Below are positions 18,712-57,065 of a stretch of 64,000 nucleotides of DNA, in pieces. A program made the position numbers and the translations under genes. Origin of the DNA: Acidobacteriota bacterium (lineage in GTDB: Archaea; Nanobdellota; Nanobdellia; Woesearchaeales; DATGWN01); NCBI GenBank assembly GCA_035299465.1, contig DATGWN010000047.1:716-64715 (forward strand), written 5' to 3'. Below the pieces are notes generated by a model, which did no database searches, was not told where the DNA came from, and was given only the letters and a program-made list of their open reading frames with translations. Every line of letters begins with the position of its first letter. Position 1 is the first letter of the stretch.

Positions 18712-18744
18712 TTTTGAAAATGAAAAAAGAGAGGAAATCCTCTC
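18712..18744 (-). terminator. hairpin (GAGAGG-AAAT-CCTCTC) followed by U-tract on the minus strand, just downstream of the 18750-19328 gene
   Basis: Perfect 6-bp inverted repeat at 18729-18744 with an A-run at 18712-18728 on the plus strand (U-run for the minus transcript). Confidence 0.45.
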
Positions 18745-18749
18745 AACCT

Positions 18750-25996: not shown

Positions 25997-26811
25997 TACA
26001 TGTCAACCGCCGGTCGTGCACCTTTGATGATGGAGAAGAACATGTATTGAAACGACGTGACCACAAGAGCGATACCCAACAGCGCGGAAAGAGATAGTTT
26101 CAAGTCGGCAAATGAGATGAGTACAACAACCATGACCATGCCTAGCGATGGGAAAATGACTGCAATCATCAAATAGAACATCGCAATTGGGTTTAGCTTC
26201 TTACCATATCGCTCGACTTCGATCAATTGCTTTTTGTTGATCTGATCAAGTACTGTCGTCAGTGAGATTGAAATATCCGCGCCAGTCTGGATAGAATTTA
26301 CAATTTGCCACATGACTTTCTGAAAATTCTCGGATGGATTGAGAACGATTGCTTTTGTGATTGCTTCTTCTACGCTGGTACCGACGTCGACATCGTCCAC
26401 TATTTTCTTGAAATACTTTCCAATGCCGTCGTAGTCACGAGCGATGTTCTTGAGCGCATCATAAATCGGAACGCCCGATTTAATCTCAACAATGAGGAAT
26501 TTTCCGACAAAGAGAATGTCCTTGTCGATGTCCTTTCTCTTTCGCATGACGACGACGTCAGGCATCTTGAGCATATTAAGAAATGACAGGCAAAAGAAAA
26601 GCGGTAAGATAATGATCAATGGCCAGAATGGTTTTTTGAAGACGGACAGAATCATCGCACAAGAGAGCGTTATCGCTAGCGCCATAGCCACTGCTTGACT
26701 GAGGATTTTTCTAATATAGATTGCAGGTTCATACTGCATTTCTGCCTGCTGCAACGTGACGTATAGATTCGGAAATTTCCTTGCAACGTAGTGGAAAAAC
26801 GGGTGTACCAT
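25996..26811 (-). CDS. T2SSF-domain pilus platform protein (TadB/FlaJ half)
   Basis: T2SSF domain 'GVPIYDALKNIARDYDGIGKYF...' with 3-4 TM helices. Start overlaps the neighbouring gene. Confidence 0.75.
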   Translation of the reverse strand: MVHPFFHYVARKFPNLYVTLQQAEMQYEPAIYIRKILSQAVAMALAITLSCAMILSVFKKPFWPLIIILPLFFCLSFLNMLKMPDVVVMRKRKDIDKDILFVGKFLIVEIKSGVPIYDALKNIARDYDGIGKYFKKIVDDVDVGTSVEEAITKAIVLNPSENFQKVMWQIVNSIQTGADISISLTTVLDQINKKQLIEVERYGKKLNPIAMFYLMIAVIFPSLGMVMVVVLISFADLKLSLSALLGIALVVTSFQYMFFSIIKGARPAVDM

Positions 26812-26814
26812 AGT

Positions 26815-28449
26815 TTAGCCTATTTTCTTGAGCAGTTCGCTTGGATTGTCGTAGTATTCTGCCATGACATGGCTGACGCCATCGATTGTATTGATGTTAT
26901 TCTTGACAAGATACGCAAGTACGCGCTCTTTTTCTTTGAGTTGCGCTTTGATCTGTGCGGCAGTCATGCCTGAGAACGTCTGTAATGTTTTTAGAAGTAC
27001 AATTGGCTCGGCCACTTTTTTGAGCTTGTCGACTGAAGGATCGTATCTGAAGAGTACGTGCGCTTCGCCGTCTTCGAGGATTTCCGCGATTTCAAATGTT
27101 CGTCGAAGTCCAGTTCGTCTGTTACGGTATTGGATGACGGCCAAGGAAAGCGCAGGGATCATTGTCTTTGGAATGTTGATTGGCGGATTCGTCAGACGTG
27201 TGACTGTTTCTGCCGCAGTGTTTGCGTGAATAGTCGCGTAGACTGAGTGACCTGTGTGAATGGCTTCGAAAAGAACTTCTGCTTCGGCAGGTCTTCTGAT
27301 TTCACCGACGAGGATTCTATCCGGACGCATACGTAGCGAGTTTTGCAAGAGCATGAGCATCGTTACGCCGCCACGACCTTCTGCGTTAGGCAATCGAGTG
27401 AGCATCGGAATCCAGTGCAAGAATTTTGGCAACTTGATTTCTCTGGTATCTTCGATTGAGATGATGCGCTGACTTGGCGGGAAGAAATTTGACATGATGT
27501 TTAGCATACTTGTCTTACCTGACGCAGTACCACCAGCGATAAGCATCGATAATTCGTATTGGATTGCGTGCCAAATGAGTGCTGCTGCCTCGAAACTGAG
27601 CGTGTTATGTTTGAGAAAATCAGCAATTGTCCAAGGCTGTGCCGAGAACTTACGGATAGTGATCGTATTACCTTCGTTTGAAATCGGCATGAGTGTTGCG
27701 TTGACACGGTCACCGACGTTGATGGAGACGTCTAGCAATGGTTCGAGGATACTGATCTGTCGACCAACTTTACGTCCGATGGTGGTCGCAAAATAGCGGA
27801 TCTGCTCTTCAGTTTCCAATTTGATGTTGGTTTTCAGCAAGCCGTGTCGTCGGTGATAGACCCAAATCGGCATGTGCGAACCGTTGATTGCGATTTCTTC
27901 TAAGCCTTGGTCACTCATGAGGACTTCGACTTCTCCTAAGCCAATACTTCGCAAGAGAACGTAGGATACGAAGAATTTTATGTGCTCAGCTTCTGCTGTC
28001 GGAAAGTATTTTTTGACGAGGACTTCGATCGTGTCTTTGAAGACGCCATGTACGTCTTCTTGTTTTTTTGTCATATCCTTGAGCTCGATATTTCCCAAGT
28101 TGACTGTTTTTACTAATTGCTGACGGATATTTTCCAAGATGAGAAGCGTGTGTTCACCAATGCTTGGGACTGAAACGTCATAAAGTGGGACATATTCGCC
28201 TTTTTGTCTGAAGATCTTGATTTGCAGCGGGATGTCACGACAGAGTACTTCGTATGAATCAATCATATCGATACTTTTCTGTCCTTTTGCGTCGCCTAGT
28301 GATGATGAGAAGTCGACGGTCTCCTGCGAAGTCTTTTCCTTCTTATTGAGATTCGTCTTTATCGCACGAGCCTGTTCCTTTTCAGAAACTGACTGGATTG
28401 TTTGAATGGCTTTGGATGGCTGATCTTTACTTTCTCTTTTTTGCCCCAT
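26815..28449 (-). CDS. type IV pilus/archaellum assembly ATPase (FlaI/TadA/VirB11 secretion ATPase family)
   Basis: Walker A 'GGTASGKTS', 'ISIEDTRE' Asp box, 'GEIRRPAEAEVLFEAIHTGHSVYATIHAN' His box. Confidence 0.85.
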   Translation of the reverse strand: MGQKRESKDQPSKAIQTIQSVSEKEQARAIKTNLNKKEKTSQETVDFSSSLGDAKGQKSIDMIDSYEVLCRDIPLQIKIFRQKGEYVPLYDVSVPSIGEHTLLILENIRQQLVKTVNLGNIELKDMTKKQEDVHGVFKDTIEVLVKKYFPTAEAEHIKFFVSYVLLRSIGLGEVEVLMSDQGLEEIAINGSHMPIWVYHRRHGLLKTNIKLETEEQIRYFATTIGRKVGRQISILEPLLDVSINVGDRVNATLMPISNEGNTITIRKFSAQPWTIADFLKHNTLSFEAAALIWHAIQYELSMLIAGGTASGKTSMLNIMSNFFPPSQRIISIEDTREIKLPKFLHWIPMLTRLPNAEGRGGVTMLMLLQNSLRMRPDRILVGEIRRPAEAEVLFEAIHTGHSVYATIHANTAAETVTRLTNPPINIPKTMIPALSLAVIQYRNRRTGLRRTFEIAEILEDGEAHVLFRYDPSVDKLKKVAEPIVLLKTLQTFSGMTAAQIKAQLKEKERVLAYLVKNNINTIDGVSHVMAEYYDNPSELLKKIG

Positions 28450-29743
28450 TATTCCCCTTTTTCTTTGTCTGCTTTTTTACTGTCTTTTTCTTTGACGTCG
28501 TTGGCTTCTCTACTGCCTTTGATGCTGTGCGTCGTGTATTTTCTGTCGACCAATCAAGCATGGACGATAGTTCTTCGACTTTCTTTTTGAAGAACGTTCG
28601 CTTTGCCGTTATGTCGTCAATTTGTGAATGTAATTTGTTGAGCTCCTTGCCGTACGTCGCTGCATCGACATTTGAACCCAAAACTTTTGCTTGTTTTTTG
28701 AGATGTTCTATTTCTTGGCGAAGTTCGACTTCTTCGTGACTGATGATATTGAGGAGGTTCATGACTTCGGCTTTATGTGCAAACAAATCTTGGAAGTGAC
28801 GTGGGATGTCGCGAATCTCGCTTTCCTTTCTATTAAGTTCTTTTTGATCGCGATCCATCTTATCGTAGATGCTTTTTTGGATGAGACTGATTTGCTTTTC
28901 TTGTATTTCGTTTTGACGGATGATATCCTGTAATGCGCGATGCTCTGATTCGAGATCGTTTTTGAGCATGTCGTGTTTTTTCTTGATGTCATACACATGT
29001 TCTTCTGTGAGTGCGAGTTTCTTTGCGCGGTCTTCGACATCAGTCTTGATGCTTGTGCTCAGCGACTTGACTTCGGCTAGACGCTGCTGCAAGAGCATTT
29101 CTTGTTCTTTGACTTTGTCTAGGAATCGTTGGCTTTTCTCGAACAATTTTTGGTCGTTCTCAAGCTCTTTTTTGGCTGATTCATAGGATGTATTGTAATT
29201 GACTTTGAGGTTTTTTATGTGGTCTTCGACTTCTTTGAGTTTAATCATTGAAGATTTCTTGGATTCGAGAATTTGACGGTCGAGGGCTTCCTTTCTTGCT
29301 TCGGCAGCTTGCAGACTTTCGAGTTCCTGGTTAACATTAGACATTTTCTTGTCAACGGAGCCTTCTAAGTCTTTCATGATATTCACGACGAGATTTATTT
29401 TCTTGTCAAGCTCATTGAAGTAACTCTCTGCGGATTCAAGCTTTGTATTAAAGAGATCTTTTTGCTGGTTAAATTTAGAAATCTGTTCTTTGACTTGGCG
29501 TTCGCCCATGTCTTGTTTTACGAGCAGCGTCGAACCAAATTTATACTGAATTTCAACGACACCTTCGCCTTCAAGAATATGAGCCCACTCTTCGATTGTT
29601 TCTACGGGCAAGGCCAACTTTTTTGCTGCGTCCTTTAGGGATATTTTGCCGTATTCATTTATAAGAGAAACGAGTTTATCTACAGTAGTGTTAATAGTAT
29701 TGTTATTTCCCATAGTCCCCAGTCTTGTTTCCACCAAGTCCAT
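28427..29743 (-). CDS. winged-helix + long coiled-coil protein with polybasic C-terminus (pilus-operon accessory)
   Basis: N-terminal wHTH-like 'ISLKDAAKKLALPVETIEEWAHILEGEGVV'. About 300 aa heptad-rich. 'KKKTVKKQTKKKGNNGAKKRK' tail. Confidence 0.65.
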   Translation of the reverse strand: MDLVETRLGTMGNNNTINTTVDKLVSLINEYGKISLKDAAKKLALPVETIEEWAHILEGEGVVEIQYKFGSTLLVKQDMGERQVKEQISKFNQQKDLFNTKLESAESYFNELDKKINLVVNIMKDLEGSVDKKMSNVNQELESLQAAEARKEALDRQILESKKSSMIKLKEVEDHIKNLKVNYNTSYESAKKELENDQKLFEKSQRFLDKVKEQEMLLQQRLAEVKSLSTSIKTDVEDRAKKLALTEEHVYDIKKKHDMLKNDLESEHRALQDIIRQNEIQEKQISLIQKSIYDKMDRDQKELNRKESEIRDIPRHFQDLFAHKAEVMNLLNIISHEEVELRQEIEHLKKQAKVLGSNVDAATYGKELNKLHSQIDDITAKRTFFKKKVEELSSMLDWSTENTRRTASKAVEKPTTSKKKTVKKQTKKKGNNGAKKRK

Positions 29744-29870
29744 TTATATAGTTTACGTATGATTCCGCCCAGAAATGTATGTCAAAACGAGGTGTATTTT
29801 AGAGTAGTTACACTTGCAGAAGAATTCGCGCTTTTGTCTTTCTCTATTTGTTGGATTTAGTGTCAGCTGA

Positions 29871-30872
29871 TCAACCAACGAAGCCCGTCAACTGGTATAA
29901 CGCAATATGCCGCACAGAACCAGAACCGTTGGTGCGATTGTCTAATCTGAATGTCGGCGTCATAATGGTGAAGCCATACGACGTCGGATTTTGAGATGAG
30001 AAATAGATATAGTCTACGCTCGATTTTGTCGCGTCAATGGGCATAAGGAATGCCAATGCAGTCTTATCCACCAGGCTTTCAATACCTGTGCCGTCGTTGG
30101 ATGCGGAAAAGTTACCTTGCAAGCGCATCAAATAATTTGGCGCGTCGTCAAACTGCACATACAATCCATCTTGTATATGCGCATTGAGGTTGGCAGGGTT
30201 ATTGCCGGACACGAAATTGCCAAGATATGGCGATTGATTGATACTGGTGACATATTGGTTTGCTGTTCCGATGATGTAAATCGGATCGGAGAAACCTTCA
30301 ATCGATACTTTACTTATTCGCTGCACTGATCGGTTCCACTGAGATTTCGTTGTTGCGTCGACAAACAATAAGTTGACGTCAATCTCGAAATCCACGTTCC
30401 ACGGGTCAGTCTGTGAGATAGTGACGTCTTGCACTTCGTAGCTGAAATCTACACCAAGTGTTTGCGCCTTTTGGTCGATGCGTTGCAGCCAGTCTGTGAA
30501 AGTGTTATTCACCAGTATTGATGATGATGTGCCGTTGAGCGTTCCGTTGAGAAACAGTTCTTTTGCGTTTGCATTGACAGATTCAAGATAAACACCCTTA
30601 TCTTCGACGGTCTGAATCATCGCGACCAACGTTCGAAAACCGACCGTATATGCCGCGATCGACGCATCTGTCTCTACGTTATCGACGAATTGATTTATCG
30701 AAGAAAGACGTGTGGAGAGCGACAATGAAACGCGATTATCCGATACTTGCGACAAAGACAGCGCGTATGTCAGCAAAAGACTGAGAATGAAAATAGCCGA
30801 TGCCGTGAAGAAAACACCTTTTTTGGTTATTTTCAGTCCCATGCTCGTACCTCGACGACGATTGGGCCCCAT
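29871..30872 (-). CDS. pilin-like surface protein (class III signal peptide)
   Basis: 'KITKKGVFFTASAIFILSLLLTYALS' N-terminus. Many N-x-S/T sequons. Confidence 0.65.
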   Translation of the reverse strand: MGPNRRRGTSMGLKITKKGVFFTASAIFILSLLLTYALSLSQVSDNRVSLSLSTRLSSINQFVDNVETDASIAAYTVGFRTLVAMIQTVEDKGVYLESVNANAKELFLNGTLNGTSSSILVNNTFTDWLQRIDQKAQTLGVDFSYEVQDVTISQTDPWNVDFEIDVNLLFVDATTKSQWNRSVQRISKVSIEGFSDPIYIIGTANQYVTSINQSPYLGNFVSGNNPANLNAHIQDGLYVQFDDAPNYLMRLQGNFSASNDGTGIESLVDKTALAFLMPIDATKSSVDYIYFSSQNPTSYGFTIMTPTFRLDNRTNGSGSVRHIALYQLTGFVG

Positions 30873-32785
30873 AATGATGGAACATCGGTGATAATATTGC
30901 CTGTCACCAAGAATCCGTTTGCTTGGATGTATCCACCCATGACGGCTTGTAGGCGTGCGAGTGCATCAGCATCCGCTTCGGCTTGAGTGGCGAATACCGC
31001 GCCATAACCGACGTATGACGGGACGAAGAATCTTCGTTCAATCTGTGAGATGTTGAGGATTTGATATGTCGTCTCCTTCACTCGCACGTAATTATTTATG
31101 GCGCTGCTTTTTTGGAAGTAGTCGCTGTCTATGAAAATGCTGGAAGGTACTGCGCGCTGCGATGGTGAACTAAAATGCAATTGACTTGGTGGGTTGTAGA
31201 TGTCAGCCCACACGGATATTTTATCCGAGTCTTTTTCGACGAGGTGGAAGTATGTATCGCCTACTTGCGTGATCGATGCGGGATAATTGAAATATCGGAT
31301 ACTGTCAACTTCGTTAGAACCATTTATTTTCTCAACAGCTGCAATCTCGATCTCACCATACGGGATTATGTTATTGATACTAAGCGTATAGTTCACTTCG
31401 ATATATGATGATGTACTGTAATTGTTTTTTATGTCACTAAAAATAGTAGGATTGCCGTTACCCCAGACGTGGTCGCCGTATGAATTTAGGTAGACCGCCA
31501 TTATGTTCGTGCCATTCTTCAAATATGGCGAGAGGTTGGTGTTTGAGAATTTGTACGTCGCTGTGGCAGACGGCGAACCGTTGACTAAAAGCGGTGTGTC
31601 GCTGTTGAGGAAAAACATGACGTCAGTCGCAGATGGATCTTTCATCGTCCCGTCCCAGCCGACATAGGATGCACACGGATCATTGAGTCTGGCACCGTTA
31701 TAGAGTACACGACATCGTGCGCCTGAGATATAATCGCGAACGCTGCTTGTTGCAATTTGTGCGTAGACACTCAAATTTTGTGCGTCTTTTGGAATGACGA
31801 ATGGCATCGTTGCCCAGACGCCGGCACCGTCGTTACCAATTTCACGAGAGCGGATATTATCAAAGTAGTATCGTCGTGAAAACTGCGTTTGCGTAAATGA
31901 GATCGGTACTTCGCTGGTGTATTTTATGAACAAACCTGTGCCTGGCTGCAAGTGCGCATTATATCCATTATGCTCAAACTCAATGTATAGTTTATTTGTA
32001 CCATTTACGAAACAGCTAGTCGAAACGTTTTTTTCACCGACGTTTCCTGTCACGTCCAGGAAATACCATGTGAAATCATCGCGACGGAATTGGCATAGGC
32101 CGTCATTGAAATTCATAATCATGTCGTTTTGCTGTGTTCCTGAGTTGAGGGATACAATGAATTTTGCTTCAAGTAGCGTTAGATTCGTGAGATTGAAATA
32201 TTTTGTAACGTCGTAGAATCCTTCGTCCCATCCTGCGCCCGATGGTGAGAGTGTCACTACATATGTACTGTTGCTGCGGACCTTGGTCGCACGCGCATTT
32301 GCGATGAAACCGCGCGTCGGCTTATTTTTCTCGACGCCAGAAACGATTCTCCATGCGACGGATTGGCTTGCAATCGGAGGATTCGTTCTCGTATAGATTG
32401 ATTCGTTCTCGATCCAAATGCCAAATGACGAATAATCTGGAATCGTCTGATTGAGGAATGCGACGATGAATTCATTGGCGAGCACATCGTCACCTTGCGC
32501 CCAGAACTGGCCCATTTGGGAAATGATGTTTTGACTCAGGTCTGTTATCGAGCCGTTCGCATTCGCGGCGACGACCCACGGATTTCCTTGGTTGTATAAA
32601 TCCGAAACGTGGACGGTTTCTAACACGTGCATTATATCTTTAGAGAGGAAGAATGATTTTGGCTGACCTGCACTTTGTGTTGGCGTGATGACAAGAAGCG
32701 AAATAGCTGCGAGCAGAATTGTCGCACAGATAATTGCATCTATGATAAAGAAGACTGCTTTTTTGTTTGATGGCTTTAGTCCCAT
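30833..32785 (-). CDS. giant (650 aa) pilin-like/adhesin-like surface protein (class III signal peptide)
   Basis: 'KKAVFFIIDAIICATILLAAISLLVI' N-terminus. N/S/T-rich, numerous N-glycosylation sequons. Confidence 0.7.
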   Translation of the reverse strand: MGLKPSNKKAVFFIIDAIICATILLAAISLLVITPTQSAGQPKSFFLSKDIMHVLETVHVSDLYNQGNPWVVAANANGSITDLSQNIISQMGQFWAQGDDVLANEFIVAFLNQTIPDYSSFGIWIENESIYTRTNPPIASQSVAWRIVSGVEKNKPTRGFIANARATKVRSNSTYVVTLSPSGAGWDEGFYDVTKYFNLTNLTLLEAKFIVSLNSGTQQNDMIMNFNDGLCQFRRDDFTWYFLDVTGNVGEKNVSTSCFVNGTNKLYIEFEHNGYNAHLQPGTGLFIKYTSEVPISFTQTQFSRRYYFDNIRSREIGNDGAGVWATMPFVIPKDAQNLSVYAQIATSSVRDYISGARCRVLYNGARLNDPCASYVGWDGTMKDPSATDVMFFLNSDTPLLVNGSPSATATYKFSNTNLSPYLKNGTNIMAVYLNSYGDHVWGNGNPTIFSDIKNNYSTSSYIEVNYTLSINNIIPYGEIEIAAVEKINGSNEVDSIRYFNYPASITQVGDTYFHLVEKDSDKISVWADIYNPPSQLHFSSPSQRAVPSSIFIDSDYFQKSSAINNYVRVKETTYQILNISQIERRFFVPSYVGYGAVFATQAEADADALARLQAVMGGYIQANGFLVTGNIITDVPSLWGPIVVEVRAWD

Positions 32786-33243
32786 AATGTCACCTGCATT
32801 TTTATTACGTAACCATCGAGCACTGCAAATCGTGTGACTGACGCAGATTGTTTTGCGTTCACTGGAAATGTACCAATAAATGAATTACCTGAGAAATTCA
32901 ATTGGTTTGACTGATTATAGAAAGTGATGTGATACTTAGACTCTGCTCCGATCAAGATTCGCTGCGCTGTCGGTGCCATTGCAAAAAATGCATCAATTTT
33001 GTCTCGGTCTAGTTCACCGTCCGTAATGAGTCCTGCCTGTATGACATTCGATGCATTCCAGTCTGACGGAATTCCTTCACCAAGCAAGATTTCGCTGGCG
33101 TAGAACGTATCACTAGAAAGGTCCTCTAATGATGTCGGAGGGCTCAAGGATGTGACATAATTATATGTAATTATGTAGATTAGAATGACAAAGAAAAGTG
33201 CGATCAAAAAATCCACTTGCCAGACTTGTCCACGGTTGTTCAT
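32776..33243 (-). CDS. archaeal pilin (class III signal peptide)
   Basis: 'MNNRGQVWQVDFLIALFFVILIYI'. Confidence 0.7.
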   Translation of the reverse strand: MNNRGQVWQVDFLIALFFVILIYIITYNYVTSLSPPTSLEDLSSDTFYASEILLGEGIPSDWNASNVIQAGLITDGELDRDKIDAFFAMAPTAQRILIGAESKYHITFYNQSNQLNFSGNSFIGTFPVNAKQSASVTRFAVLDGYVIKMQVTLWD

Positions 33244-33620
33244 TGAATTGTCAAACCTCCGTTGAGCATGGCAAGCGTGAAATTAAAGGATGTCGTGTTT
33301 CCCGTCACAGATGGTAATGCAAGTACTACTTGATTCTCGCCCTGTGTAATATACATATTACTCGCAAGGATTTCGAACGTATACGGATTACCATTAATAG
33401 TCGGATCAAGTTCTATTTGACGAGAAAATCCTTCTTTCATAGTGGATGCGACCATGAAATCGTTCTGCAGCGAGATAGCAAATGATTCAATTGCAGATTC
33501 TTCTTGTTCTTGAATCGACTGCGTTTGCTCCGATAAGACAAAAATGATTATACCTGAGAACAAGATGAGTGCGACACCAAAATACACCATGAATTCTGTC
33601 AAGACTTGTGCTTTTCTCAT
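33240..33620 (-). CDS. archaeal pilin (class III signal peptide)
   Basis: 'MRKAQVLTEFMVYFGVALILFSGIIIFVL'. Confidence 0.7.
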   Translation of the reverse strand: MRKAQVLTEFMVYFGVALILFSGIIIFVLSEQTQSIQEQEESAIESFAISLQNDFMVASTMKEGFSRQIELDPTINGNPYTFEILASNMYITQGENQVVLALPSVTGNTTSFNFTLAMLNGGLTIQ

Positions 33621-34078
33621 GATTCTGCTATACTGACACCGGAACCAGTTGCAGTCACCAGCACGCTTCTTGTGCCTTCACGTGCAGATAGAGATCCGCT
33701 GAGTGGCACTGATGTAAATACGGTGATGTCTTCTTGACCGTACTGCGTCTGCATGCGCGCAGTTATCGTCTCGTTGGAAAAGAAAATTGACTGGACTGAG
33801 TCTGGAAAATAGATATTGACTGTGCTAAACGACGGCGGACCTATGTTGTAGACTGATTGCGCGTGGTCTGACACAGTTGTGAGTGCAAGATATACCTGGC
33901 GAGTCTGTAACGTGTCGCGGTACTCCGCATATGAATTATACGCAAGAACAGAGACTGGAATAATAATGGCAAGAACAAAACCCACTGTCAGTAGGTATTC
34001 AATGCTAACCTGACCCCTCTTTTGCATCATGTGTATTTCCACAGGCTTGTTTAAAAATGCTGCGATGCTAGTACGCAT
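33617..34078 (-). CDS. archaeal pilin (class III signal peptide)
   Basis: 'MMQKRGQVSIEYLLTVGFVLAIIIPVSVL' (start probably at the internal MMQKRG). Confidence 0.7.
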   Translation of the reverse strand: MRTSIAAFLNKPVEIHMMQKRGQVSIEYLLTVGFVLAIIIPVSVLAYNSYAEYRDTLQTRQVYLALTTVSDHAQSVYNIGPPSFSTVNIYFPDSVQSIFFSNETITARMQTQYGQEDITVFTSVPLSGSLSAREGTRSVLVTATGSGVSIAES

Positions 34079-41355: not shown

Positions 41356-41488
41356 TGAGGGAAGAAGGAATTATCAATTGTTTTTAAACCTTAGCGCACA
41401 AAGACTGCGTCGTGCTGAACAATATGTGATAGAACAATTTGTGTTTTTATGATGGCGTCCATTGTTTGAACTCTCCACTTCTAAAAAA

Positions 41489-41563
41489 CGCTCCCGCCGG
41501 GATTTGAACCCGGGTCACAAGAATGAAAGTCTTGTATGATTGGCCGGACTACACTACAGGAGC
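41489..41563 (-). tRNA. tRNA-Glu (anticodon UUC)
   Basis: Cloverleaf folds by hand: acceptor GCUCCUG/CGGGAGC, T-arm CCGGG-UUCAAAU-CCCGG, anticodon loop CUUUCAU. TATA-like 'ATTTATAAAG' lies 28-37 nt upstream on the minus strand. Confidence 0.8.
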
Positions 41564-41590
41564 AGTCGTTACTTCACGGAACGCCCACCC

Positions 41591-41604: not shown

Positions 41605-42675
41605 TTATGAGAGATAGGGTTTTAGCAGGGCTTGTTGCCACGGCAAAAGATGGTCGACAGATTTGCTGACTACGATATGTAGTAATTGATCTTTGCTTGC
41701 GATGATGTGTGGCGGAACGTTCTCTTTCTTTGCAAGCTCCAATCGTGCAGCTTCGAGTTTGTCTAACAGCGAGCGCTGTGCTGGAGAGAGTCGCTTTCGT
41801 TCCGTTTTGACGACGGGCATAGGGACAGCAGTCGCTAATGCATTTGTGAACAGATGAGCGTTTGCGCGGACAGCAGGATGTACGCCATTGAGTGATTTAA
41901 AATCCGGCGGAGATTTTGCGAATTCGACGAGTAATTTGTTTGTGAAGACGTAATGCACCGGTCGATTTACCTTCTTTGCCAGTTGATCTCTCGCTTCGTA
42001 CAGAACTTTGGCTCTTCCTCGCTCGATGTCGTTGAGTAAACCTACGCCTTTGACTTCGTGCCAAACTTGGTCTTGATACGTCATCTGCGAGTTTTCCACT
42101 TGACGACAGATTGACTGCATCCACTCAAGTTTTTTGCACGCTATGAGCTCGTCTTTTAGTTTTTGTGCGAGCGAAAGTAGATATTTTGTGTCGGAGATTG
42201 CGTATTCGATCATACCTGCAGAAAGAGGGCGCTTTGTCCAATCCACTTTCTGGAATTTGGATTGCTTTTGGACGTTGAAGTATGTCGTCAAAAGTGCGCC
42301 GAGTCCAACTTCTGGTTTGCCAAGTACCGTTGCGGCGAGTCGTGTGTCAAAGACATTCTTTGGTCGTGCACCGTATTGGCGAAACAGAATCCGAAAATCA
42401 AAGTCTGTGTCGTGAAACACTTTTTCTATGTTTGGATTTTGCAGCATGTCGATGACTGGTTTGATATCTTTGAGTGCCAATGTGTCGATGATGCAAGAGT
42501 GCTTTGATGTGGAGATTTGGATAATTGTGATATATACGCCGTAATGGTGCATATTGTTTTCGCATTCGAGGTCGACGCCTATTATAGGTTCGTTCACCCA
42601 TGTAGCTGCGAATTCATTCAACTGTTCTTGCGTCGTGATAACTTGCTGCATACTGTTTGCCGTTCCCGCACTCAT
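41605..42675 (-). CDS. RNase D-like DEDDy 3'-5' exonuclease with HRDC domain
   Basis: 'IGVDLECEN...YGVYITIIQIS' (exo I), 'KVFHDTDFDFRIL' (exo II), 'YAISDTKYL' (exo III, DEDDy), C-terminal HRDC-like helices. Confidence 0.75.
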   Translation of the reverse strand: MSAGTANSMQQVITTQEQLNEFAATWVNEPIIGVDLECENNMHHYGVYITIIQISTSKHSCIIDTLALKDIKPVIDMLQNPNIEKVFHDTDFDFRILFRQYGARPKNVFDTRLAATVLGKPEVGLGALLTTYFNVQKQSKFQKVDWTKRPLSAGMIEYAISDTKYLLSLAQKLKDELIACKKLEWMQSICRQVENSQMTYQDQVWHEVKGVGLLNDIERGRAKVLYEARDQLAKKVNRPVHYVFTNKLLVEFAKSPPDFKSLNGVHPAVRANAHLFTNALATAVPMPVVKTERKRLSPAQRSLLDKLEAARLELAKKENVPPHIIASKDQLLHIVVSKSVDHLLPWQQALLKPYLS

Positions 42676-45876: not shown

Positions 45877-45886
45877 TTTTTAAATA
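45877..45886 (+). promoter_or_regulatory. TATA box for the intron-containing tRNA
   Basis: 'TTTTTAAATA' about 27 nt upstream of the tRNA 5' end. Confidence 0.4.
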
Positions 45887-45907: not shown

Positions 45908-46011
45908 GACCCTGTAGCTTAGCCTGGTGGAGCGCCGGTCTTATATGACCGCGATTCATACGCGCTGTCGAAGACAGCCGGTGGTCCCGAGTTCAAATCT
46001 CGGCAGGGTCA
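45908..46011 (+). tRNA. intron-containing tRNA, mature anticodon UAU (tRNA-Ile(UAU)); 30-nt intron at canonical 37/38
   Basis: Acceptor GACCCUG/CAGGGUC+A73. D-arm GCUU-AGCCUGGUG-GAGC. Anticodon stem CCGGU/GCCGG. T-arm CCGAG-UUCAAAU-CUCGG. 37 nt lie between the anticodon-stem halves, giving a 7-nt loop CUUAUA|A plus a 30-nt intron UGACC...AAGAC with an internal CGCG/CGCG hairpin and bulge-helix-bulge-like geometry. Confidence 0.6.
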
Positions 46012-46045
46012 CTTTTCAGATTTTTCTTTTGATCTTAAAAAATAA

Positions 46046-49520: not shown

Positions 49521-49862
49521 ATGGCAAAAAAAGAATTGTCTAAAGAACAATCAGAAGACGCACTTCGACTTATCGAAGTAATCAGAGCTAACGGCAAAGT
49601 AAGAAAAGGAACAAACGAAGTCACTAAGGCAATCGAGCGAAATCAAGCTAAGCTTGTCGTTATCGCTAAAGACGTTTCACCAGCTGAATTAGTCATGCAC
49701 CTTCCACTTTTGTGCGAAGAAAAGAGTGTACCATGCGTAGTAGCAGGTTCACGCGAAGAACTCGGCGCAGCAGCAGGTCTTACAGTAGGAACTGTCGCAG
49801 TAGCAATCACTGAAGACGGAAGCTCAAAAGCAGACTTACAAAAGTTCGTAGACAGCCTATAG
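49521..49862 (+). CDS. rpl7ae: ribosomal protein L7Ae (also snoRNP/RNase P component)
   Basis: '[26 protein letters not shown]'. Conserved L7Ae-S28e-L24e-ndk archaeal cluster. Confidence 0.9.
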
Positions 49863-49872
49863 GTACATACCC

Positions 49873-50142
49873 ATGGCAGACAAACCAACACAAGCACCTA
49901 AGCAGGAATCATCCGCACCACGTGGTGGCGGAATCAGCTTCACAGAAGCAGTTCCAGCAACGGTTGAAGAGATCATCGGAAGAACAGGTATGCGTGGCGA
50001 AGCAGTGCAAGTCCGTGTCAAAGTTCTCGACGGTCGAGACAAGAACAAGATCATCAGACGAAACGTGAAGGGTCCAGTTAGACTAGGCGACACAATGATG
50101 TTGCGAGAAACTGAATTCGAAGCACGACCACTCAGCAGGTAA
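49873..50142 (+). CDS. rps28e: ribosomal protein S28e
   Basis: '[38 protein letters not shown]'. Confidence 0.85.
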
Positions 50143-50147
50143 AGACA

Positions 50148-50342
50148 ATGGTAAAATGCAGTTTTTCAGGTAAGACGATACCACCAGGACAGGGCATCAT
50201 GTATGTTCAAAACGACGGTCGTGTCTATTACTTCATCAACAAGAAGGCAGAGCGAAACATGCTCAAGCTCGATCGCAAGCCTCGTACAACGAAGTGGACT
50301 GAAGAATATCACCGATTGAAGCGTGATACGAAGAAACAATGA
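50148..50342 (+). CDS. rpl24e: ribosomal protein L24e
   Basis: 'KCSFSGKTIPPGQGIMYV..DGRVYYF'. Zn-ribbon Cys mostly substituted. Confidence 0.8.
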   Translation: MVKCSFSGKTIPPGQGIMYVQNDGRVYYFINKKAERNMLKLDRKPRTTKWTEEYHRLKRDTKKQ

Positions 50343-50842
50343 TTGAACGAACTCTCGTTTTACTCAAACCAGATGCAGTCGCTCGTCAATTAAACGGTCA
50401 AATCATCACGCGCTTTGAGACGGCAGGATTGAAGATCGTGGGCCTAAAGATGGTCCATGTCGACAAGAACTTCGCCAAGACTCACTACCGTGAAGACGAT
50501 ATCGCAAAACGACGCGGCTACGACGTATGGGAGCAAAACCTGGAATTCCTTTCTAAAGGTCCAGTCGTCGCTCTCGTACTTGAAGGCATCAACGCAATCG
50601 CAAACGTGCGAAAGATCGTCGGAAGCACAGAGCCAAGCGCAGCTGCGCCAGGCACTATCCGAGGAGATTTCTGTCACGCGACGTTTGCTCCGGCAAACGC
50701 AAACAAGCGCGCGGTGGCTAACGTCATCCACGCTTCCTCGTCAGTTGACGATGCGAAAGTCGAGATTTCCGTCTGGTTCAAACCAAGCGAGATTCATTCA
50801 TACAAAACAGTGCACGAACACTACATGCACCACACATTTTAG
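50339..50842 (+). CDS. ndk: nucleoside diphosphate kinase
   Basis: 'ERTLVLLKPDAV', 'NVIHASSS' active-site His. Overlaps the upstream stop. Confidence 0.9.
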   Translation: MIERTLVLLKPDAVARQLNGQIITRFETAGLKIVGLKMVHVDKNFAKTHYREDDIAKRRGYDVWEQNLEFLSKGPVVALVLEGINAIANVRKIVGSTEPSAAAPGTIRGDFCHATFAPANANKRAVANVIHASSSVDDAKVEISVWFKPSEIHSYKTVHEHYMHHTF

Positions 50843-50850
50843 AGGTAACA

Positions 50851-53046
50851 ATGGCAACAGACAAAATGGTTGATCGCGTTCAGCGCATCATCAAAAATCC
50901 AGATCAGATTAGAAATATCTGTACGTCAGCCCACATCCACCACGGTAAAACGGCTTTCACAGATAACCTCCTTGCAGCATCAGGTCAAATGGCGGCTAAA
51001 TTCGCCGGTGACCTAGAGCAAGGTATGGCGACGTGGCAACACGCAGACGAACAAGAACGACTTATGACAGTTGACGCGGCAAACGTATCAATGGTCCACG
51101 AGTACAACGGCAAAGAATTCCTCATCAACTTGATTGATACGCCAGGTCACGTAGACTTCGGTGGTAACGTCACTCGAGCGATGCGAGCAATCGACGGTAC
51201 AATCGTTCTCGTTTGTGCAGTCGAAGGTTTCATGCCGCAGACTGAAACGGTCTTGCGACAAGCTCTCAAGGAAAGAGTCAAGCCTATCTTGTTCATCAAC
51301 AAAGTAGACCGACTCATCAAAGAAGTCAAGATGACGCCAGAGTCCATGCAAGCACGCTTCATGGAAATCTTCAAGGAATTCAACCAGATGATCGACAAGA
51401 TCGCTGAACCAGAATTCGCAGCACAATGGAAGGTCGACATCCTCAACGGTTCAGTCGCGTTCGGTTCCGCACGTGATAACTGGGCAATGAGTGTCCCATT
51501 CATGAAGAAGAAGGGCGTTTCATTCAAGGATGTCCTTAACATCTACGAACTCGACGAACAAGCTCGAAAAGACTGGTGCTGGAAAAATGCTCCTCTTTTT
51601 GAAGTCATCCTAGACATGGTAGTTGGTCACTTGCCAACTCCACAACAAGCGCAGCGCTACAGAATCCCTAAGATCTGGCACGGCGATTTGGAATCAGACT
51701 TCGGTAAGGATTTGATCACGTGTAACACTGCAGGGAAACCAGCATTCTGTATCACGCGTATCGTCATCGACCCACGATCAGGTAAAGAAATCTCGGCAGG
51801 ACGTTTGTTCTCAGGTAAACTTGCAGATGGTATGGAAGTCTATCTGAACCTTGCAAAGAAGCGACAGCGAATCCACCAAGTCCTCGTCTATAACGGTATC
51901 AAACCAGAACCGGTTGGCGAAATCACTGGCGGGAACGTACTTGCGATCACTGGTGTCGTTGGTGAAGCGGGAGAAACAATCACGCTCAATCCAGAAACTC
52001 CATTCGAAGAACTCAAACACATCTTCGATCCGGTCATCACGAAAGCGATCAAGGTCAAAAACCACCTCGACTTGCCAAAACTCGTCGAAGTATTGCAAAA
52101 AGTTGCAAAAGAAGACCCATCAGTCAAAGTCCAGATGGACCAGAAGACTGGTGAAAACTTGCTTTCAGGTATGGGTGAGTTGCACTTAGAAATCATCGAA
52201 GGACGTATCAAGACTGAAAAAGGTGTCGAAGTTGAAACTTCAAACCCAATCATCATCTATCGTGAATCGATCACTAAGGCATCGCCAGAATACGAAGGTA
52301 AGTCGCCGAACAAGCACAACAAGTTCTACTTCAGAGTCGAACCAGTTGAGCCATCGGTTGTCGAAGCAATGTCATTTGGTAAGTTGACAAACCAACACGT
52401 CAAAGGTAAGGACTTGGCTTTACGTCAAATATTCCTCGACGCTGGTTACGAAACGAAGCAAGCTGACGCTGTCAAGGCAATCTACAACGGTAACTTGTTC
52501 ATCGACGAAACTCGTGGTCAAATCTACATGATGGAAGTCATTGAGATGTTGCTCGAAACGTTCGAAGACGTCATGAACAATGGTCCAGTCGCTCGTGAGC
52601 CATGCTTCGGTGTCAAAGTCATCATGACTGATATGAAGCTACACGAAGACGCGATCCACCGTGGTCCGGCACAAGTCTATCCTGCGGTCCGTGAAGGTAT
52701 CCGTGGTGCAATGGTCAATGCAGGTCCAACGTTGTTTGAGCCACAGCAAATCTTATTGATTGAAGTCCCTAACGAATACATGGGAGAAATCAGTAAGCTT
52801 GTCTCATCCAAGCGCGGTCAATTGCTCGATATGACTCAAAGCGCAGATCAAGCGAACATCAAGGCGAAGATGCCGGTCATGGAACTCCTTGGCTGGTCTA
52901 GCGACTTGCGTTCTGCAACATCAGGTCGAGGTATCTCCTCACTTGTCGATCAAAGCTTTGAACGATTGCCTAACGAAATCCAAGGCAAGGTCAGACAGCA
53001 GATCATGCAGCGAAAAGGCTTGAACGAAAGCCAAGTCGGTATCTAA
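50851..53046 (+). CDS. fusA: translation elongation factor 2 (aEF-2)
   Basis: 'IRNICTSAHIHHGKT', 'NLIDTPGHVDF', 'NKVDRL', diphthamide-region 'DAIHRGPAQV'. Followed by an oligo-T terminator. Confidence 0.9.
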   Translation: MATDKMVDRVQRIIKNPDQIRNICTSAHIHHGKTAFTDNLLAASGQMAAKFAGDLEQGMATWQHADEQERLMTVDAANVSMVHEYNGKEFLINLIDTPGHVDFGGNVTRAMRAIDGTIVLVCAVEGFMPQTETVLRQALKERVKPILFINKVDRLIKEVKMTPESMQARFMEIFKEFNQMIDKIAEPEFAAQWKVDILNGSVAFGSARDNWAMSVPFMKKKGVSFKDVLNIYELDEQARKDWCWKNAPLFEVILDMVVGHLPTPQQAQRYRIPKIWHGDLESDFGKDLITCNTAGKPAFCITRIVIDPRSGKEISAGRLFSGKLADGMEVYLNLAKKRQRIHQVLVYNGIKPEPVGEITGGNVLAITGVVGEAGETITLNPETPFEELKHIFDPVITKAIKVKNHLDLPKLVEVLQKVAKEDPSVKVQMDQKTGENLLSGMGELHLEIIEGRIKTEKGVEVETSNPIIIYRESITKASPEYEGKSPNKHNKFYFRVEPVEPSVVEAMSFGKLTNQHVKGKDLALRQIFLDAGYETKQADAVKAIYNGNLFIDETRGQIYMMEVIEMLLETFEDVMNNGPVAREPCFGVKVIMTDMKLHEDAIHRGPAQVYPAVREGIRGAMVNAGPTLFEPQQILLIEVPNEYMGEISKLVSSKRGQLLDMTQSADQANIKAKMPVMELLGWSSDLRSATSGRGISSLVDQSFERLPNEIQGKVRQQIMQRKGLNESQVGI

Positions 53047-53050
53047 ACCG

Positions 53051-53093
53051 ATTTTTTTCTTTTTATTTTCCTTCTTTTTTTTCTGATAATAGA
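53051..53093 (+). terminator. oligo-T archaeal terminator after aEF-2
   Basis: 'TTTTTTTCTTTTTATTTTCCTTCTTTTTTTTC' immediately 3' of the stop. Confidence 0.5.
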
Positions 53094-53151
53094 TTTATAC
53101 AAGACACAATTTACAGAATATTATTTTGCCCGCAGAATCTACGTGCAATAA

Positions 53152-53562
53152 TTAGAAGTCTTGATGTCTTAACTCGTAGGCAGAATGTCCAAACGTTATT
53201 GCCTTGGCGCGGTACGCTGGCACTCGGATTCTTGCGCCGATCGTCTTACCAAGGAATGCGTCAAAATTCGCTTGCATCATATCAGGTCCGCTCGTCCACG
53301 TGTGCAACTGAAATCCAAATGTATGATTGTAATCCATGGTGACGGTGACTTGCCGTGTGAAAAATCCAGGTGCGATTCTATATCCTGTGAGCATGCCTTG
53401 GATGTCGACTTCTTGATCGAATGAATAGCGACGTTCGTTTTTTACGACGTCAGCAAGCGAGAGTACTTTTGGCTGGCTCGGTGTTTGCGGCAGTGTGAAA
53501 TAGATGTGTGGAATTCTGTGTGCTTCTAAACTTATCATCGAACCGTCTACGTCTTTTGCCAT
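53152..53562 (-). CDS. hypothetical protein (paralog 1 of tandem pair)
   Basis: 136 aa. Shares 'P.PKV.S..D.V' N-terminal and 'A.A..FG..A..L' C-terminal motifs with the next gene. Confidence 0.5.
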   Translation of the reverse strand: MAKDVDGSMISLEAHRIPHIYFTLPQTPSQPKVLSLADVVKNERRYSFDQEVDIQGMLTGYRIAPGFFTRQVTVTMDYNHTFGFQLHTWTSGPDMMQANFDAFLGKTIGARIRVPAYRAKAITFGHSAYELRHQDF

Positions 53563-53564
53563 CG

Positions 53565-53957
53565 TTATACCAAATCAAACGCTTTACTTCCAAAATAAAG
53601 TGCCTGCGCTCGTCGGCTGTGTGTGTTAATGTTCGCAGCCATCACTTTGCCCGTATATGCATTCGTCCAAACGTACAAACGATCCATATCTCCGGATAGA
53701 GGATGGATTTCAAAATGAAGCCATAATTTCGTCGTATTTTCGTAAAGAACCAGACTCACTCGTTTCTCCAACAACCCTTCGCCTACGGAACACTGGAATA
53801 GTCGACCAGCAACAGTCGCATAGTCAGGCAAGTTTCGATTAAGAACAATATCTGTGACGGAATATACTTTTGGCCGTGCAGGAGTAACAATTCGTGGAAC
53901 TGTTCCAAGTACTTCGCCAAAATCTCCGCGATCCATACTGCAATCAAGTAACTCCAA
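53565..53957 (-). CDS. hypothetical protein (paralog 2 of tandem pair)
   Basis: 130 aa, 3 nt from paralog 1. Confidence 0.5.
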   Translation of the reverse strand: MELLDCSMDRGDFGEVLGTVPRIVTPARPKVYSVTDIVLNRNLPDYATVAGRLFQCSVGEGLLEKRVSLVLYENTTKLWLHFEIHPLSGDMDRLYVWTNAYTGKVMAANINTHSRRAQALYFGSKAFDLV

Positions 53958-54008
53958 TCATTTAAACCTTTCTTCAGGTTTTATATAATACAAACATATC
54001 CCCGTGTC

Positions 54009-54461
54009 ATGCTTGAGAAGATTGCGGCAGCAGATACGTTCGTGGAAAATTCTGTTTGGAATTTAGTGGACGCACATTCGTATTTTATCGGCGGCAAAGA
54101 AAATGCGGCTGCGTTCACCATGTACTTGACTAGCGTTGGTTCGTACGCAGTAAAATATCGAGACGTGGATGAAACGTTAGGTGTGGCACTGCAAAGCGGA
54201 CATATTTTTCTTATGTATTTTCTAATGAAAAACGGAGTGCGGGCAGCACAGCATGCATTCGGCGGTTCTTCGCTTTCAGACGCGTTTGATCTGGGCATGA
54301 CGGCTTTGCAGGTATCCATGAAGGCGGTAGCGTACATCACGATAATCAAGACGATACCGTCGCTTGCTCAACAACAATATATGGCGGCTGCACAGGCGGC
54401 GCTTTTCTCTATATCACTCTATTGTCTTGGATTACCGCTTCGCGCAGAAACGAAAAAATAA
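54009..54461 (+). CDS. hypothetical protein
   Basis: More protein-like than the overlapping minus-strand ORF at 53981-54349. Confidence 0.3.
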   Translation: MLEKIAAADTFVENSVWNLVDAHSYFIGGKENAAAFTMYLTSVGSYAVKYRDVDETLGVALQSGHIFLMYFLMKNGVRAAQHAFGGSSLSDAFDLGMTALQVSMKAVAYITIIKTIPSLAQQQYMAAAQAALFSISLYCLGLPLRAETKK

Positions 54462-54509
54462 GAATATAAGATGAAAAAATGAAAGAAGATGAAAAAATGA
54501 AAAAAGACT

Positions 54510-54749
54510 TTATTTTCTTTTCTTTAGCAAGTAGTAGATAATCGCTGTGACCCAAGAGCCGATTACTGCAGCGACGGTCCAGATAATTTTTTCTTCTTGC
54601 TTTGCTTTGAGAACTTTCCAAACATCGTAGATGACCCAGATCATTGCCGCGATGCTCACTAACCATATTAATTGGCCGCCCATGCCGCCAACGCCGTACC
54701 ATAAAAACATACTATTACCCCCGAACCATGTTCGTGAATGGTTTCTCAT
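54510..54749 (-). CDS. small two-TM membrane protein (PLDc_N-like)
   Basis: 'LIWLVSIAAMIWVIYDVWKV' plus a second TM helix. Start probably at the internal 'MFLWYG' (about 54710). Confidence 0.4.
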   Translation of the reverse strand: MRNHSRTWFGGNSMFLWYGVGGMGGQLIWLVSIAAMIWVIYDVWKVLKAKQEEKIIWTVAAVIGSWVTAIIYYLLKKRK

Positions 54750-54778
54750 TTAGGCATATATAAATTTTCGCCAGTTAT

Positions 54779-55618
54779 ATGAGATTGTATGTGTTTTCAT
54801 GTGTTTTCGCATATGCGACGAGGACTAACTTTAAAAAGCACCTCGGAGACAGAGTATTTAGCATGGTCCGTTTATTTTTATCAAACATTGGTTACTGCCA
54901 AAATTTGACTGGGTCATTGTTTGGCTATACTAAATTCTGGAAACGATTCTTTGGGCATGATAAGGTCCTATCAGACATCTCTTCAACTATTGCTAAGTCC
55001 AAAGCGGATGTCGCTGCAATCATCGAGGTCGACAACGGCAGCTTTGGTGTAGACCAGCTTGCAACTCTTGGTAAATCGACGGGACTTTCTCATAAATTCT
55101 CCGACGTGAAATATCAGCCACAGGGTTTAGGTATGCTATTTAGACAGATCCCAGTCCTCAAGAATCAAGGTAATGGAGTTTTGTCCAAGTTTCCGCTCAC
55201 GCAGACTGAGTCTAAATTCTTCTCATCTGGCGCAAAGCGATTATTCATACAGACTGTCATACACACGCCAGATCCGGTGACGATGCTTGTTGTCCACTTG
55301 GCACTTGACGAAGCTACGAGAAAAGTACAGTTCAAAGAACTTCTTGCCGCAGTACGGACTCTAAAGACTCCCTATATAATAGTGGGAGACTTTAACGCAC
55401 ACGGTTCAGAAATTGATGCGTTCTGCCACGCGGCGGGTGTCGTCAATACACACAGTTCGCTCGCATCGCCGTATACGTTCCCACGCTATCAGCCGTCCAA
55501 ACAGATCGACTATATTCTTGTATCAAAAGAGATTTCGATCTCTTGTCCGCAAGTAATTTCTGAGTCGCATTCTGACCATTTAGCGCTTTGCGTGGACATT
55601 ACTGTTAGTCGACCTTAA
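54779..55618 (+). CDS. endonuclease/exonuclease/phosphatase (EEP) family protein
   Basis: 'YIIVGDFNAHG' and 'SDHLAL' EEP motifs. Start may be at the internal 'MVRLF' (54863). Confidence 0.7.
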   Translation: MRLYVFSCVFAYATRTNFKKHLGDRVFSMVRLFLSNIGYCQNLTGSLFGYTKFWKRFFGHDKVLSDISSTIAKSKADVAAIIEVDNGSFGVDQLATLGKSTGLSHKFSDVKYQPQGLGMLFRQIPVLKNQGNGVLSKFPLTQTESKFFSSGAKRLFIQTVIHTPDPVTMLVVHLALDEATRKVQFKELLAAVRTLKTPYIIVGDFNAHGSEIDAFCHAAGVVNTHSSLASPYTFPRYQPSKQIDYILVSKEISISCPQVISESHSDHLALCVDITVSRP

Positions 55619-55772
55619 TTTTACGCTAGGGCCCCGACGGTACGCCTCACCACAACCTTTATAAAGAGGCGGTCTTTTCTGAATAGAGTCGCAAACTCTT
55701 GGTTAAATGGGGGAGTGGCACATCGCACACAAATGCGGTATCCAAATTACGAATTATTAGGAGGAAAACCTT

Positions 55773-57065
55773 ATGGCACGAGCAAAAGAACACATCAACC
55801 TGATTTTTATCGGGCACGTTGACCACGGTAAGTCAACATCAGTCGGTCGACTCATGTTCGACGCAGGCTTCATCGACGAAGTTACAATGCGAAAGTTGAA
55901 AGAAAAAGCACAATCACTTGGTAAAGCTGGTTTCGAATTCGCCTATGTTATGGACGAATTGAAAGAAGAACAAGAACGTGGTGTCACTATCGACCTCGCT
56001 CACAAGAAGTTCGAAACTAAGAAGTACGACTACACTATCATCGACGCACCAGGTCACAAAGACTTCATCAAAAACATGATCACTGGCGCATCACAAGCAG
56101 ACGCAGCAGTTCTAGTCTGTGCAGCACCAGAAGGTGTCTCACCACAAACTCGAGAACACGCATTCTTGTCAAAGACTTTCGGTGTCAAACACCTTATCGT
56201 CGCAATCAACAAGATGGACATGGTCAAGTACGACCAAGCTAAGTTCAATGCAGTCAAAGCTGATGTTGAAACTGTCCTCAAGAACGCAGGCTGGAGACCA
56301 GACCAAATCTTGGCTTTCGTCCCTACTGCAGCATTCGTTGGTGACAACGTTTTCAAGAAGTCAACTAACATGCCTTGGTACACTGGAAAGAGCATCTTCG
56401 AATTGATGGATGATATCCCAGCACCAACTAAGCCAACAGACAAACCATTACGACTCCCAATCCAAGACGTCTATACTATTACAGGTATCGGAGCAGTCCC
56501 AGTTGGTAAAGTTGAAACTGGTATCATGAAGGTTAACGACAAAGTTGTTGCAGTCCCAGGCCGTGAAGGTAAGGGTGTTCTTGGCGATGTCAAGACAATC
56601 GAAATGCATCACTCACAAGTCCAATCAGCAGAACCTGGTGACAACATCGGTTTCTCAATCAGAGGCTTTGGTGCTAAAGACGTAGCTAAGGGCGATGTCA
56701 TCGGTCACCAAGACAACTGGCCAACGGTAGCTGAAGAGTTCACAGCACGAATCATCGTCTTGAACCACCCATCCGTTATCACGATCGGTTACACTCCAGT
56801 ATTCCACATCCACACTGCACAAGTTGCTTGCCAAGTTATTGCAATCGAAAAGAAGCTTAACCCAGCAACTGGTGAAGTTCTTGCGGAAAATCCAGACTTT
56901 ATCAAGAATGGAGACGCTGCAGTCGTACGACTCAAGCCAACAAGACCACTCGTCATCGAAAAGTCAGCAGACAACCCGCAAATGTCACGATTCGCAATCC
57001 GCGATTCAGGTGCAACAGTTGCAGCTGGTATGTGTATTGACATTAAGCCTAAGAAGCTCAATTAA
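55773..57065 (+). CDS. tuf: translation elongation factor 1-alpha (aEF-1alpha)
   Basis: 'GHVDHGKST', 'DAPGH', 'NKMD'. AGGAGG RBS 8 nt upstream. Confidence 0.95.

Follow-up and report, generated by a model that had tools for sequence, protein, structure and literature searches.

Most archaea read the isoleucine codon AUA with a tRNA-Ile2(CAU) that is modified to agmatidine by the enzyme TiaS. The locus described here lies in a stretch of 64,000 nucleotides, the whole of which was analysed and is called the window, and appears to encode the anticodon UAU directly, in a tRNA gene split by an intron. This raises the questions of whether the gene is a genuine AUA decoder, to which kind of host it belongs, whether it stands in place of the TiaS system, and what its intron signifies.

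The tRNA gene and its host

A Pfam scan of the open reading frames showed that the window encodes L7Ae, S28e, NDK, aEF-2, aEF-1alpha and a fragment of AlaRS. The presence of L7Ae, S28e, aEF-2 and aEF-1alpha identifies the window as archaeal, in agreement with the sequence-only reading, which had assigned the tRNA to an archaeon. The window aEF-2 is 63-71% identical to proteins from Nanoarchaeia, Woesearchaeota, Pacearchaeota and 'Nanoarchaeota' MAGs, and its identity to those of Nanoarchaeia and Woesearchaeota implies that the host belongs to the DPANN archaea. The best aEF-2 match reaches only 71%, which indicates that there is no close relative among the species representatives. The UAU anticodon had itself been proposed as a lineage clue, and the affinity of aEF-2 bears this out by pointing to the Nanoarchaeum side of the archaea.

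Two further regions of the window, both on the reverse strand, are of note in their own right. The first (8359-19328) consists of nine large same-strand open reading frames of 192-763 amino acids. Two have weak matches to AAA-ATPases, the only Pfam matches in the run, and several contain much coiled-coil-like, Q/E/K-rich sequence. The second (24425-34078) is a type IV pilus/archaellum-like cluster with two T2SSF-family membrane proteins, a T2SSE ATPase, a protein that weakly matches a class III signal peptide and several open reading frames without a family match.

The Rfam tRNA model RF00005 matches positions 45908-46011 on the forward strand with 54.7 bits (gathering threshold 29; E = 5e-9), in an alignment that spans model positions 1-71 of 71 and contains a single 31-nt insertion, located in the anticodon loop. 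When introns were allowed (-i), ARAGORN called a tRNA-Ile(tat) with the 30-nt intron tgaccgcgattcatacgcgctgtcgaagac, arranged ttata-intron-agccg, whereas its default mode, which has no intron option, missed this gene in the window and returned tRNA-Glu(UUC) as its sole call. All 21 of 21 stem pairs proved to be standard in a scripted and manual check: 7/7 in the acceptor stem, 4/4 in the D stem (one U.G), 5/5 in the anticodon stem (one U.G) and 5/5 in the T stem. The conserved residues U8, A14, G18-G19, U33, G53-U54-U55-C56, A58 and C61 are present in the Rfam alignment; at position 21 the window has G where A is usual, and several homologues share this G21. Rfam, ARAGORN -i and the stem-pair check concur with the earlier claims that a cloverleaf forms only after removal of a 30-nt intron at 37/38, and that the spliced anticodon loop is C-U-U-A-U-A-A (7 nt), with U33, A37 and the anticodon UAU.

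These methods also delimit the exons. The 5' exon (45908-45945, forward strand; tRNA positions 1-37) carries the 5' strand of the acceptor stem, the D arm, the 5' strand of the anticodon stem and then C32, U33, U34, A35, U36 and A37; the AUA-reading anticodon is formed by T45942, A45943 and T45944 (45942-45944), and A37 lies at 45945. The intron occupies the canonical 37/38 site (45946-45975, forward strand) according to both ARAGORN -i and a cloverleaf-constrained fold. It is followed by the 3' exon (45976-46011, forward strand; tRNA positions 38-73), which extends from A38 at 45976 to the discriminator A73 at 46011. Since the anticodon is situated 5' of the intron, directly after the 5-bp stem and C32-U33, no placement of an intron in the 37/38 area can alter it. 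Removal of the intron leaves a mature tRNA of 74 nt, counted as 75 bases by ARAGORN, whose 5-nt variable loop (UGGUC) and A73 make up a class I body, as expected for Ile; A73 is conserved across the UAU tRNA family among the matches listed.

A TATA-box-like element, TTTAAATA, can be read directly at 45879-45886 on the forward strand, -29 to -22 from the tRNA 5' end, and would serve as the promoter. A TTTAAATA-type box is found between -42 and -15 in 61 of the 79 homologous loci with enough upstream sequence, among the matches listed. Oligo-T is an archaeal termination signal, and the T-runs TTTT, TTTTT and TTTT at 46013-46030 (forward strand) are a likely transcription stop. On its sequence, 45908-46011 is very probably a real, functional gene for an AUA-decoding tRNA-Ile(UAU), and its host a DPANN archaeon of Nanoarchaeia/Woesearchaeota type.

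In the standard archaeal bulge-helix-bulge (BHB) motif, tRNA positions 32-35 have intron positions -3 to -6 as their partners, and the two 3-nt bulges, formed by 36, 37 and i1 and by i-2, i-1 and 38, are each cut after the second base. The window motif follows this plan on the forward strand. The 5' strand of the central helix is C32 U33 U34 A35 (45940-45943) and its 3' strand is GAAG at intron positions -6 to -3 (45970-45973), with the pairs C45940-G45973, U45941-A45972 and U45942-A45971 and a mismatch of A45943 with G45970. The 5' bulge, U36-A37-U(i1), places a splice site between 45945 and 45946, and the 3' bulge, A-C-A38, places the other between 45975 and 45976. In constrained folds, an inner helix h' pairs GAC (i2-i4; 45947-45949) with GUC (i-9 to i-7; 45967-45969), and a 4-bp GC hairpin forms within the intron (45950-45953 paired with 45961-45964). 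A manual check of the BHB, as the sequence-only reading had suggested, therefore found the bulges in the expected places and three Watson-Crick pairs, but an A35.G mismatch as the fourth central pair; by its predicted pairing, the motif is a slightly relaxed rather than a strict hBHBh' BHB. That a mismatched helix is tolerated is plausible, since tRNA genes are more often disrupted where the DPANN endonuclease has an extra loop (PMC5829648). A box C/D guide within the intron was also considered and rejected, as neither C nor D box motifs are visible on direct reading of the 30 nt.

Free-energy folding of the precursor does not favour this form: the unconstrained minimum, at -45.9 kcal/mol against -33.9 kcal/mol for the BHB form, is neither a cloverleaf nor a BHB. 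As the comparison with homologues supports the BHB, this is a caveat and not a refutation, and the discrepancy was put down to a familiar limitation of free-energy folding when applied to tRNAs.

Decoding of AUA

AUA codons are in use in the window, where 209 of them in 47 long open reading frames correspond to 11.8 per thousand codons and 17% of the Ile codons. They are nearly absent from the genes of L7Ae, S28e, NDK, aEF-2 and aEF-1alpha (49521-57065), which contain 1 AUA versus 99 AUC. Judged from these counts, the scarcity of AUA in translation-related genes is a strong expression-linked avoidance, and it fits decoding by a minor tRNA. Alignment of 28 AUA columns (one variable aEF-2 site was left out) showed mostly Ile in the homologues from the retrieved loci, followed by Val or Leu, with few homologues at most columns, and Met was the commonest aligned residue at one of the 28. 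The alignment of AUA to Ile, Val and Leu thus gives no sign of a reassignment of the codon.

An encoded UAU anticodon had been described in the sequence-only reading as reported for a few archaeal lineages, with Nanoarchaeum and Korarchaeum as examples. The examples stand: a survey of 167 archaeal genomes found UAU tRNAs only in those of Nanoarchaeum equitans and of Korarchaeum cryptofilum, the Korarchaeum gene being intron-bearing (PMC6000648), and the tRNAscan-SE 2.0 paper accounts for the lack of Ile2 in both by an 'Ile3(UAU)' tRNA (PMC8450103). However, the list is longer, as all three ARMAN lineages, which also belong to DPANN, possess tRNA-Ile(UAU) and lack both tRNA-Ile(CAU) and TiaS (PMC3239211), and the intron-bearing form is common in metagenomes. 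Compared by description, Nanoarchaeum and Korarchaeum resemble the window in encoding UAU, without tRNA-Ile2(CAU), and Korarchaeum also in its intron; they differ in being the sole UAU cases of the 167-genome survey, while the family of the window is abundant in metagenomes.

ARMAN-2 (Candidatus Micrarchaeum acidiphilum) shares with the window its DPANN affiliation, the UAU anticodon and a single short BHB intron at 37/38, of 25 nt as against 30 nt in the window; its genome is without TiaS and tRNA-Ile(CAU), and its pre-tRNA is cleaved in vitro by its own, cognate splicing endonuclease (PMC3239211, PMC12397907). It differs in that a strict hBHBh' motif was described there, where the window has the A35.G mismatch in the central helix, and in belonging to a different DPANN lineage from the Nanoarchaeia/Woesearchaeota type of the window host. 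An intron-bearing tRNA-Ile(UAU) without TiaS is consequently already known from ARMAN, and no new mechanism is presented here. Among bacteria, tRNA-Ile2(UAU), as in Mycoplasma mobile, is similar in that an encoded UAU reads AUA after loss of the cytidine-modifying enzyme (TilS, the counterpart in archaea being TiaS), but these genes are intronless; in M. mobile U34 carries no modification, and an altered IleRS and ribosome provide the specificity (PMC3575796). The tRNA-Ile2(CAU)/TiaS pair serves the same codon and the same amino acid by converting C34 to agmatidine, whereas the window tRNA encodes U34 and needs no such enzyme.

The Pfam scan of the 59 open reading frames of the 64-kb window found no TiaS domain, EndA or RtcB, and the search of the window for a CAU tRNA was negative even when the Rfam threshold was set permissively. 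A putative TiaS motif (DDTDS..CTTY) had no match in 2.0 Mb made up of the window and the homologous loci, mostly of DPANN type; with a putative motif and a small sample, this null result is weak evidence. In the literature, no open-access paper joining DPANN, UAU and isoleucine was found, and none relevant on TiaS and DPANN. By analogy with the lineages above, TiaS is probably absent genome-wide; the sequence-only reading had taken the encoded UAU to imply absence of TiaS or independence from it.

The proposed pathway would start with transcription from the TATA box about 25 nt upstream and termination at the T-runs. The ends would be trimmed, and CCA would be added because none is encoded at the 3' end of the window gene. 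In the precursor, the 30-nt intron is predicted from the sequence and its homologues to pair with C32-U33-U34(-A35) in the slightly relaxed BHB; the splicing endonuclease would cut after A37 and before A38, and an RtcB-type ligase would join the halves. The resulting 74-nt tRNA, with A73 as discriminator, would have A37 beside U36, which is the usual context for t6A, and would be charged by IleRS and read AUA.

On the model of ARMAN, Nanoarchaeum and Korarchaeum, this tRNA-Ile(UAU) probably replaces, and does not supplement, the TiaS/agmatidine tRNA-Ile2(CAU) system. It could instead be functional but redundant, in a genome that also has TiaS and tRNA-Ile2(CAU) and reads AUA by two systems. 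This is unlikely, though not far-fetched: the genome was seen over 64 kb only, and some Firmicutes keep both tilS and a tRNA-Ile(TAT) gene (PMC3575796), but Nanoarchaeum and Korarchaeum have UAU without tRNA-Ile2(CAU) (PMC8450103), ARMAN is without both tRNA-Ile(CAU) and TiaS (PMC3239211), and the searches of the window for TiaS and a CAU tRNA, as well as the weaker one for the putative motif in 2.0 Mb, point in the same direction. Replacement accordingly remains the preferred reading.

Homologues and the splice site

Homologous genes were identified with a pattern consisting of the window-type D arm, six free bases and YTTATA, applied to IMG/VR and then to a metagenome collection. The scan gave 7 matches in IMG/VR and at least 120 metagenome stretches; frequencies derived from it refer to one D-arm type, among the matches listed, and are indicative only. 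ARAGORN reported tRNA(tat) for 81 of the matches listed, 56 of these with introns. Our own stem-based parse yielded at least 110 UAU tRNAs including that of the window, 85 with a 37/38 intron and 25 without, among the matches listed. The tRNAs with a 37/38 intron represent 84 distinct sequences among the matches listed, with introns of 15-92 nt (mode 46-47 nt). The closest relatives of the window in the mature tRNA, among the matches listed, are L119, L116 and L108, which are 88-92% identical and have introns of 31-35 nt.

In the canonical register, all four central-helix pairs can form in 70 of the 84 intron-bearing sequences, three in 13 and two in one, among the matches listed. Shifted registers reach at least three of four pairs in at most one of the 84, with the exception of a shift of +2, which reaches three, and never four, in 29 (among the matches listed). 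The A35.G(i-6) mismatch of the window (45943/45970) recurs with differing tRNA bodies and is present in 12 of the 84 genes among the matches listed, the carriers besides the window being L094, L099, L105, L108, L119, L127, L128, L133, L166, L174 and L190. The first intron base is U in 11 of these 12 genes and could pair with the G instead.

The gap-free splice region of 76 sequences was aligned and scored for agreement with the BHB structure. Pairing is complete (100%) in the anticodon stem, with two-sided (compensatory) changes at all 5 pairs, and the central helix is 95.4% paired, its variation being confined to the intron side and leading only to G.U or to the A.G mismatch. In the inner helix, pair 1 is G(i2)-C(i-7) in 72 of the 76 sequences, and pair 2 is standard in 56 of the 76, with compensatory types. 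Overall, the BHB alignment is 88.5% paired, compared with 27-46% when the partners are slid by 1-3 columns, and the observed covariation was reached by none of 500 shuffles. On this comparison, the intron-bearing form is widespread in metagenomes, with a conserved BHB register, which suggests that for a large group of uncultivated archaea an intron-bearing tRNA-Ile(UAU) is the normal condition. A separate feature of the alignment is the U31.G39 wobble that closes the anticodon stem in 59 of the 76 family members, including the window, with U-A in 14 more (A1 columns 5 and 45); this conserved wobble beside the loop might have a bearing on codon discrimination.

The homologues also bear on another reading of the window gene, as a pseudogene in decay or a mobile element's tRNA-like remnant. 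Such an origin would accommodate the BHB mismatch, the G21 in place of the usual A and the thermodynamic fold that is not a cloverleaf; it is nevertheless highly improbable, given that G21 and A35.G recur in independent homologues, that the full-length model score is high with zero stem mismatches, that promoter and terminator signals are predicted from the sequence, and that the AUA codons in use require a decoder. Moreover, the window contains no repeat of the 3' half, and the G+C content of the region stays even.

Among the matches listed, ARAGORN -i misplaced the intron in about 30 homologues and labelled them Ser(tga), Ala(tgc/agc), Thr(tgt) or Leu(taa) (L097, L100, L117, L118, L121, L126, L127, L129, L133, L138, L141, L152, L155, L158, L167, L168, L172, L175, L185, L189-L191, L194, L200 and L207). 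Because of these misplacements, its anticodon labels for homologues were discarded and the stem parser was used instead; its two 'Ile(gat)' calls on contigs that carry homologues (L095 and L186) were apparent false calls and were not used for an isotype check. Although such labels would speak for an intron elsewhere in the anticodon loop and a mature anticodon other than UAU, this reading is barely credible, because the mislabelled homologues all have YTTATA straight after the 5-bp anticodon stem and a class I body, because a 5-nt variable loop cannot belong to a class II Ser or Leu tRNA, because intron positions -6 to -3, a conserved UAAG/GAAG, pair with C32-A35 in no register other than 37/38 (the +2 shift giving three of four pairs in 29 of 84, among the matches listed), and because ARAGORN and Rfam both give 37/38 for the window itself, where the sequence-only reading had named a different intron position or anticodon as what would count against it.

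The window contains two tRNAs only, the second being tRNA-Glu(UUC), which ARAGORN places at 41488-41564 and which is also given as 41489-41563, on the reverse strand, 4.3 kb from tRNA-Ile(UAU). In 35 of 84 loci (L090-L205; median locus length 3.7 kb), among the matches listed, the intron-bearing tRNA-Ile(UAU) has a tRNA-Glu(UUC) at a distance of 92-3342 nt, and on these positions the linkage of the two genes looks conserved. In 80 aEF-2 neighbourhoods of related genomes there were 29 tRNAs, none of them UAU, which indicates no synteny at that distance, and a tblastn comparison of the window proteins with the homologous loci revealed no conserved flanking gene. Weak linkage signals were seen in L136, where L7Ae and S28e share a contig with the tRNA, and in L139, where NDK is near it. 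An RNase D-like open reading frame (PF01612 3'-5' exonuclease and HRDC; 41605-42675, reverse strand) adjoins the tRNA-Glu gene. The idea that the tRNA gene serves as an integration site was considered and rejected.

Intron turnover and its meaning

The 25 intronless UAU tRNAs among the matches listed are of more than one kind. Seven come from viral contigs and several encode CCA, which marks those genes as bacterial or phage. About 10 are close siblings of intron-bearing genes, two of them being identical in the mature part to genes with a 15-nt or a 50-nt intron. The seven IMG/VR contigs (L081-L087) carry an intronless tRNA(UAU) of the same D-arm type; L083, with 35 tRNAs, is large-phage-like, and the tRNA of L086 is the same as that of the metagenome locus L160. 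Among the close siblings, identical or 99% identical mature tRNAs exist with and without an intron (of 15 nt and 50 nt), namely L137 versus L185, and L178 and L162 versus L198. Gain or loss of the intron is therefore recent in these cases, and the intron is not strictly required.

A further possibility is suggested by eukaryotic nuclear tRNA-Ile(UAU), which shares the anticodon and likewise has a 37/38 intron pairing with it. There the intron has been kept in nearly all lineages, and in yeast it is needed for the Pus1-dependent pseudouridines 34 and 36 and blocks ncm5U34 (PMC11408192; bioRxiv 10.1101/2025.06.17.660180). The archaeal intron might likewise be retained because the anticodon depends on it for its modification state: paired with U34-A35 in the precursor, the intron could allow an intron-dependent modification, or could protect U34 from a general U34-modifying enzyme, which would prevent reading of AUG. 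We consider this quite unlikely. The frequency of the intron, 84 of about 95-100 archaeal-type family members among the matches listed, can be set beside the approximately 15% of archaeal tRNA genes that generally contain introns (PMC11408192). However, genes that are otherwise identical may have the intron or not, which argues against a requirement for modification and, with identical mature tRNAs occurring in both states, distinguishes the family of the window from its eukaryotic counterpart. We know of no comparable intron-dependent modification in archaea. If the proposal were true, an intron-bearing tRNA-Ile(UAU) would be a trait common to archaea and eukaryotes and not a coincidence.

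The gene also matters for genome annotation. Finders without an intron mode miss it, and ARAGORN -i is often wrong about the anticodon of its relatives. DPANN genomes may consequently seem to be without an AUA decoder, and the artefact could distort their tRNA censuses.

For the biology of the host, the gene would mark an archaeon that reads AUA by an encoded UAU instead of the TiaS/agmatidine system. The wide occurrence of the UAU form raises the question of how such archaea avoid reading AUG as isoleucine, and the encoded UAU may serve as a quick marker of both lineage and physiology for DPANN genomes.
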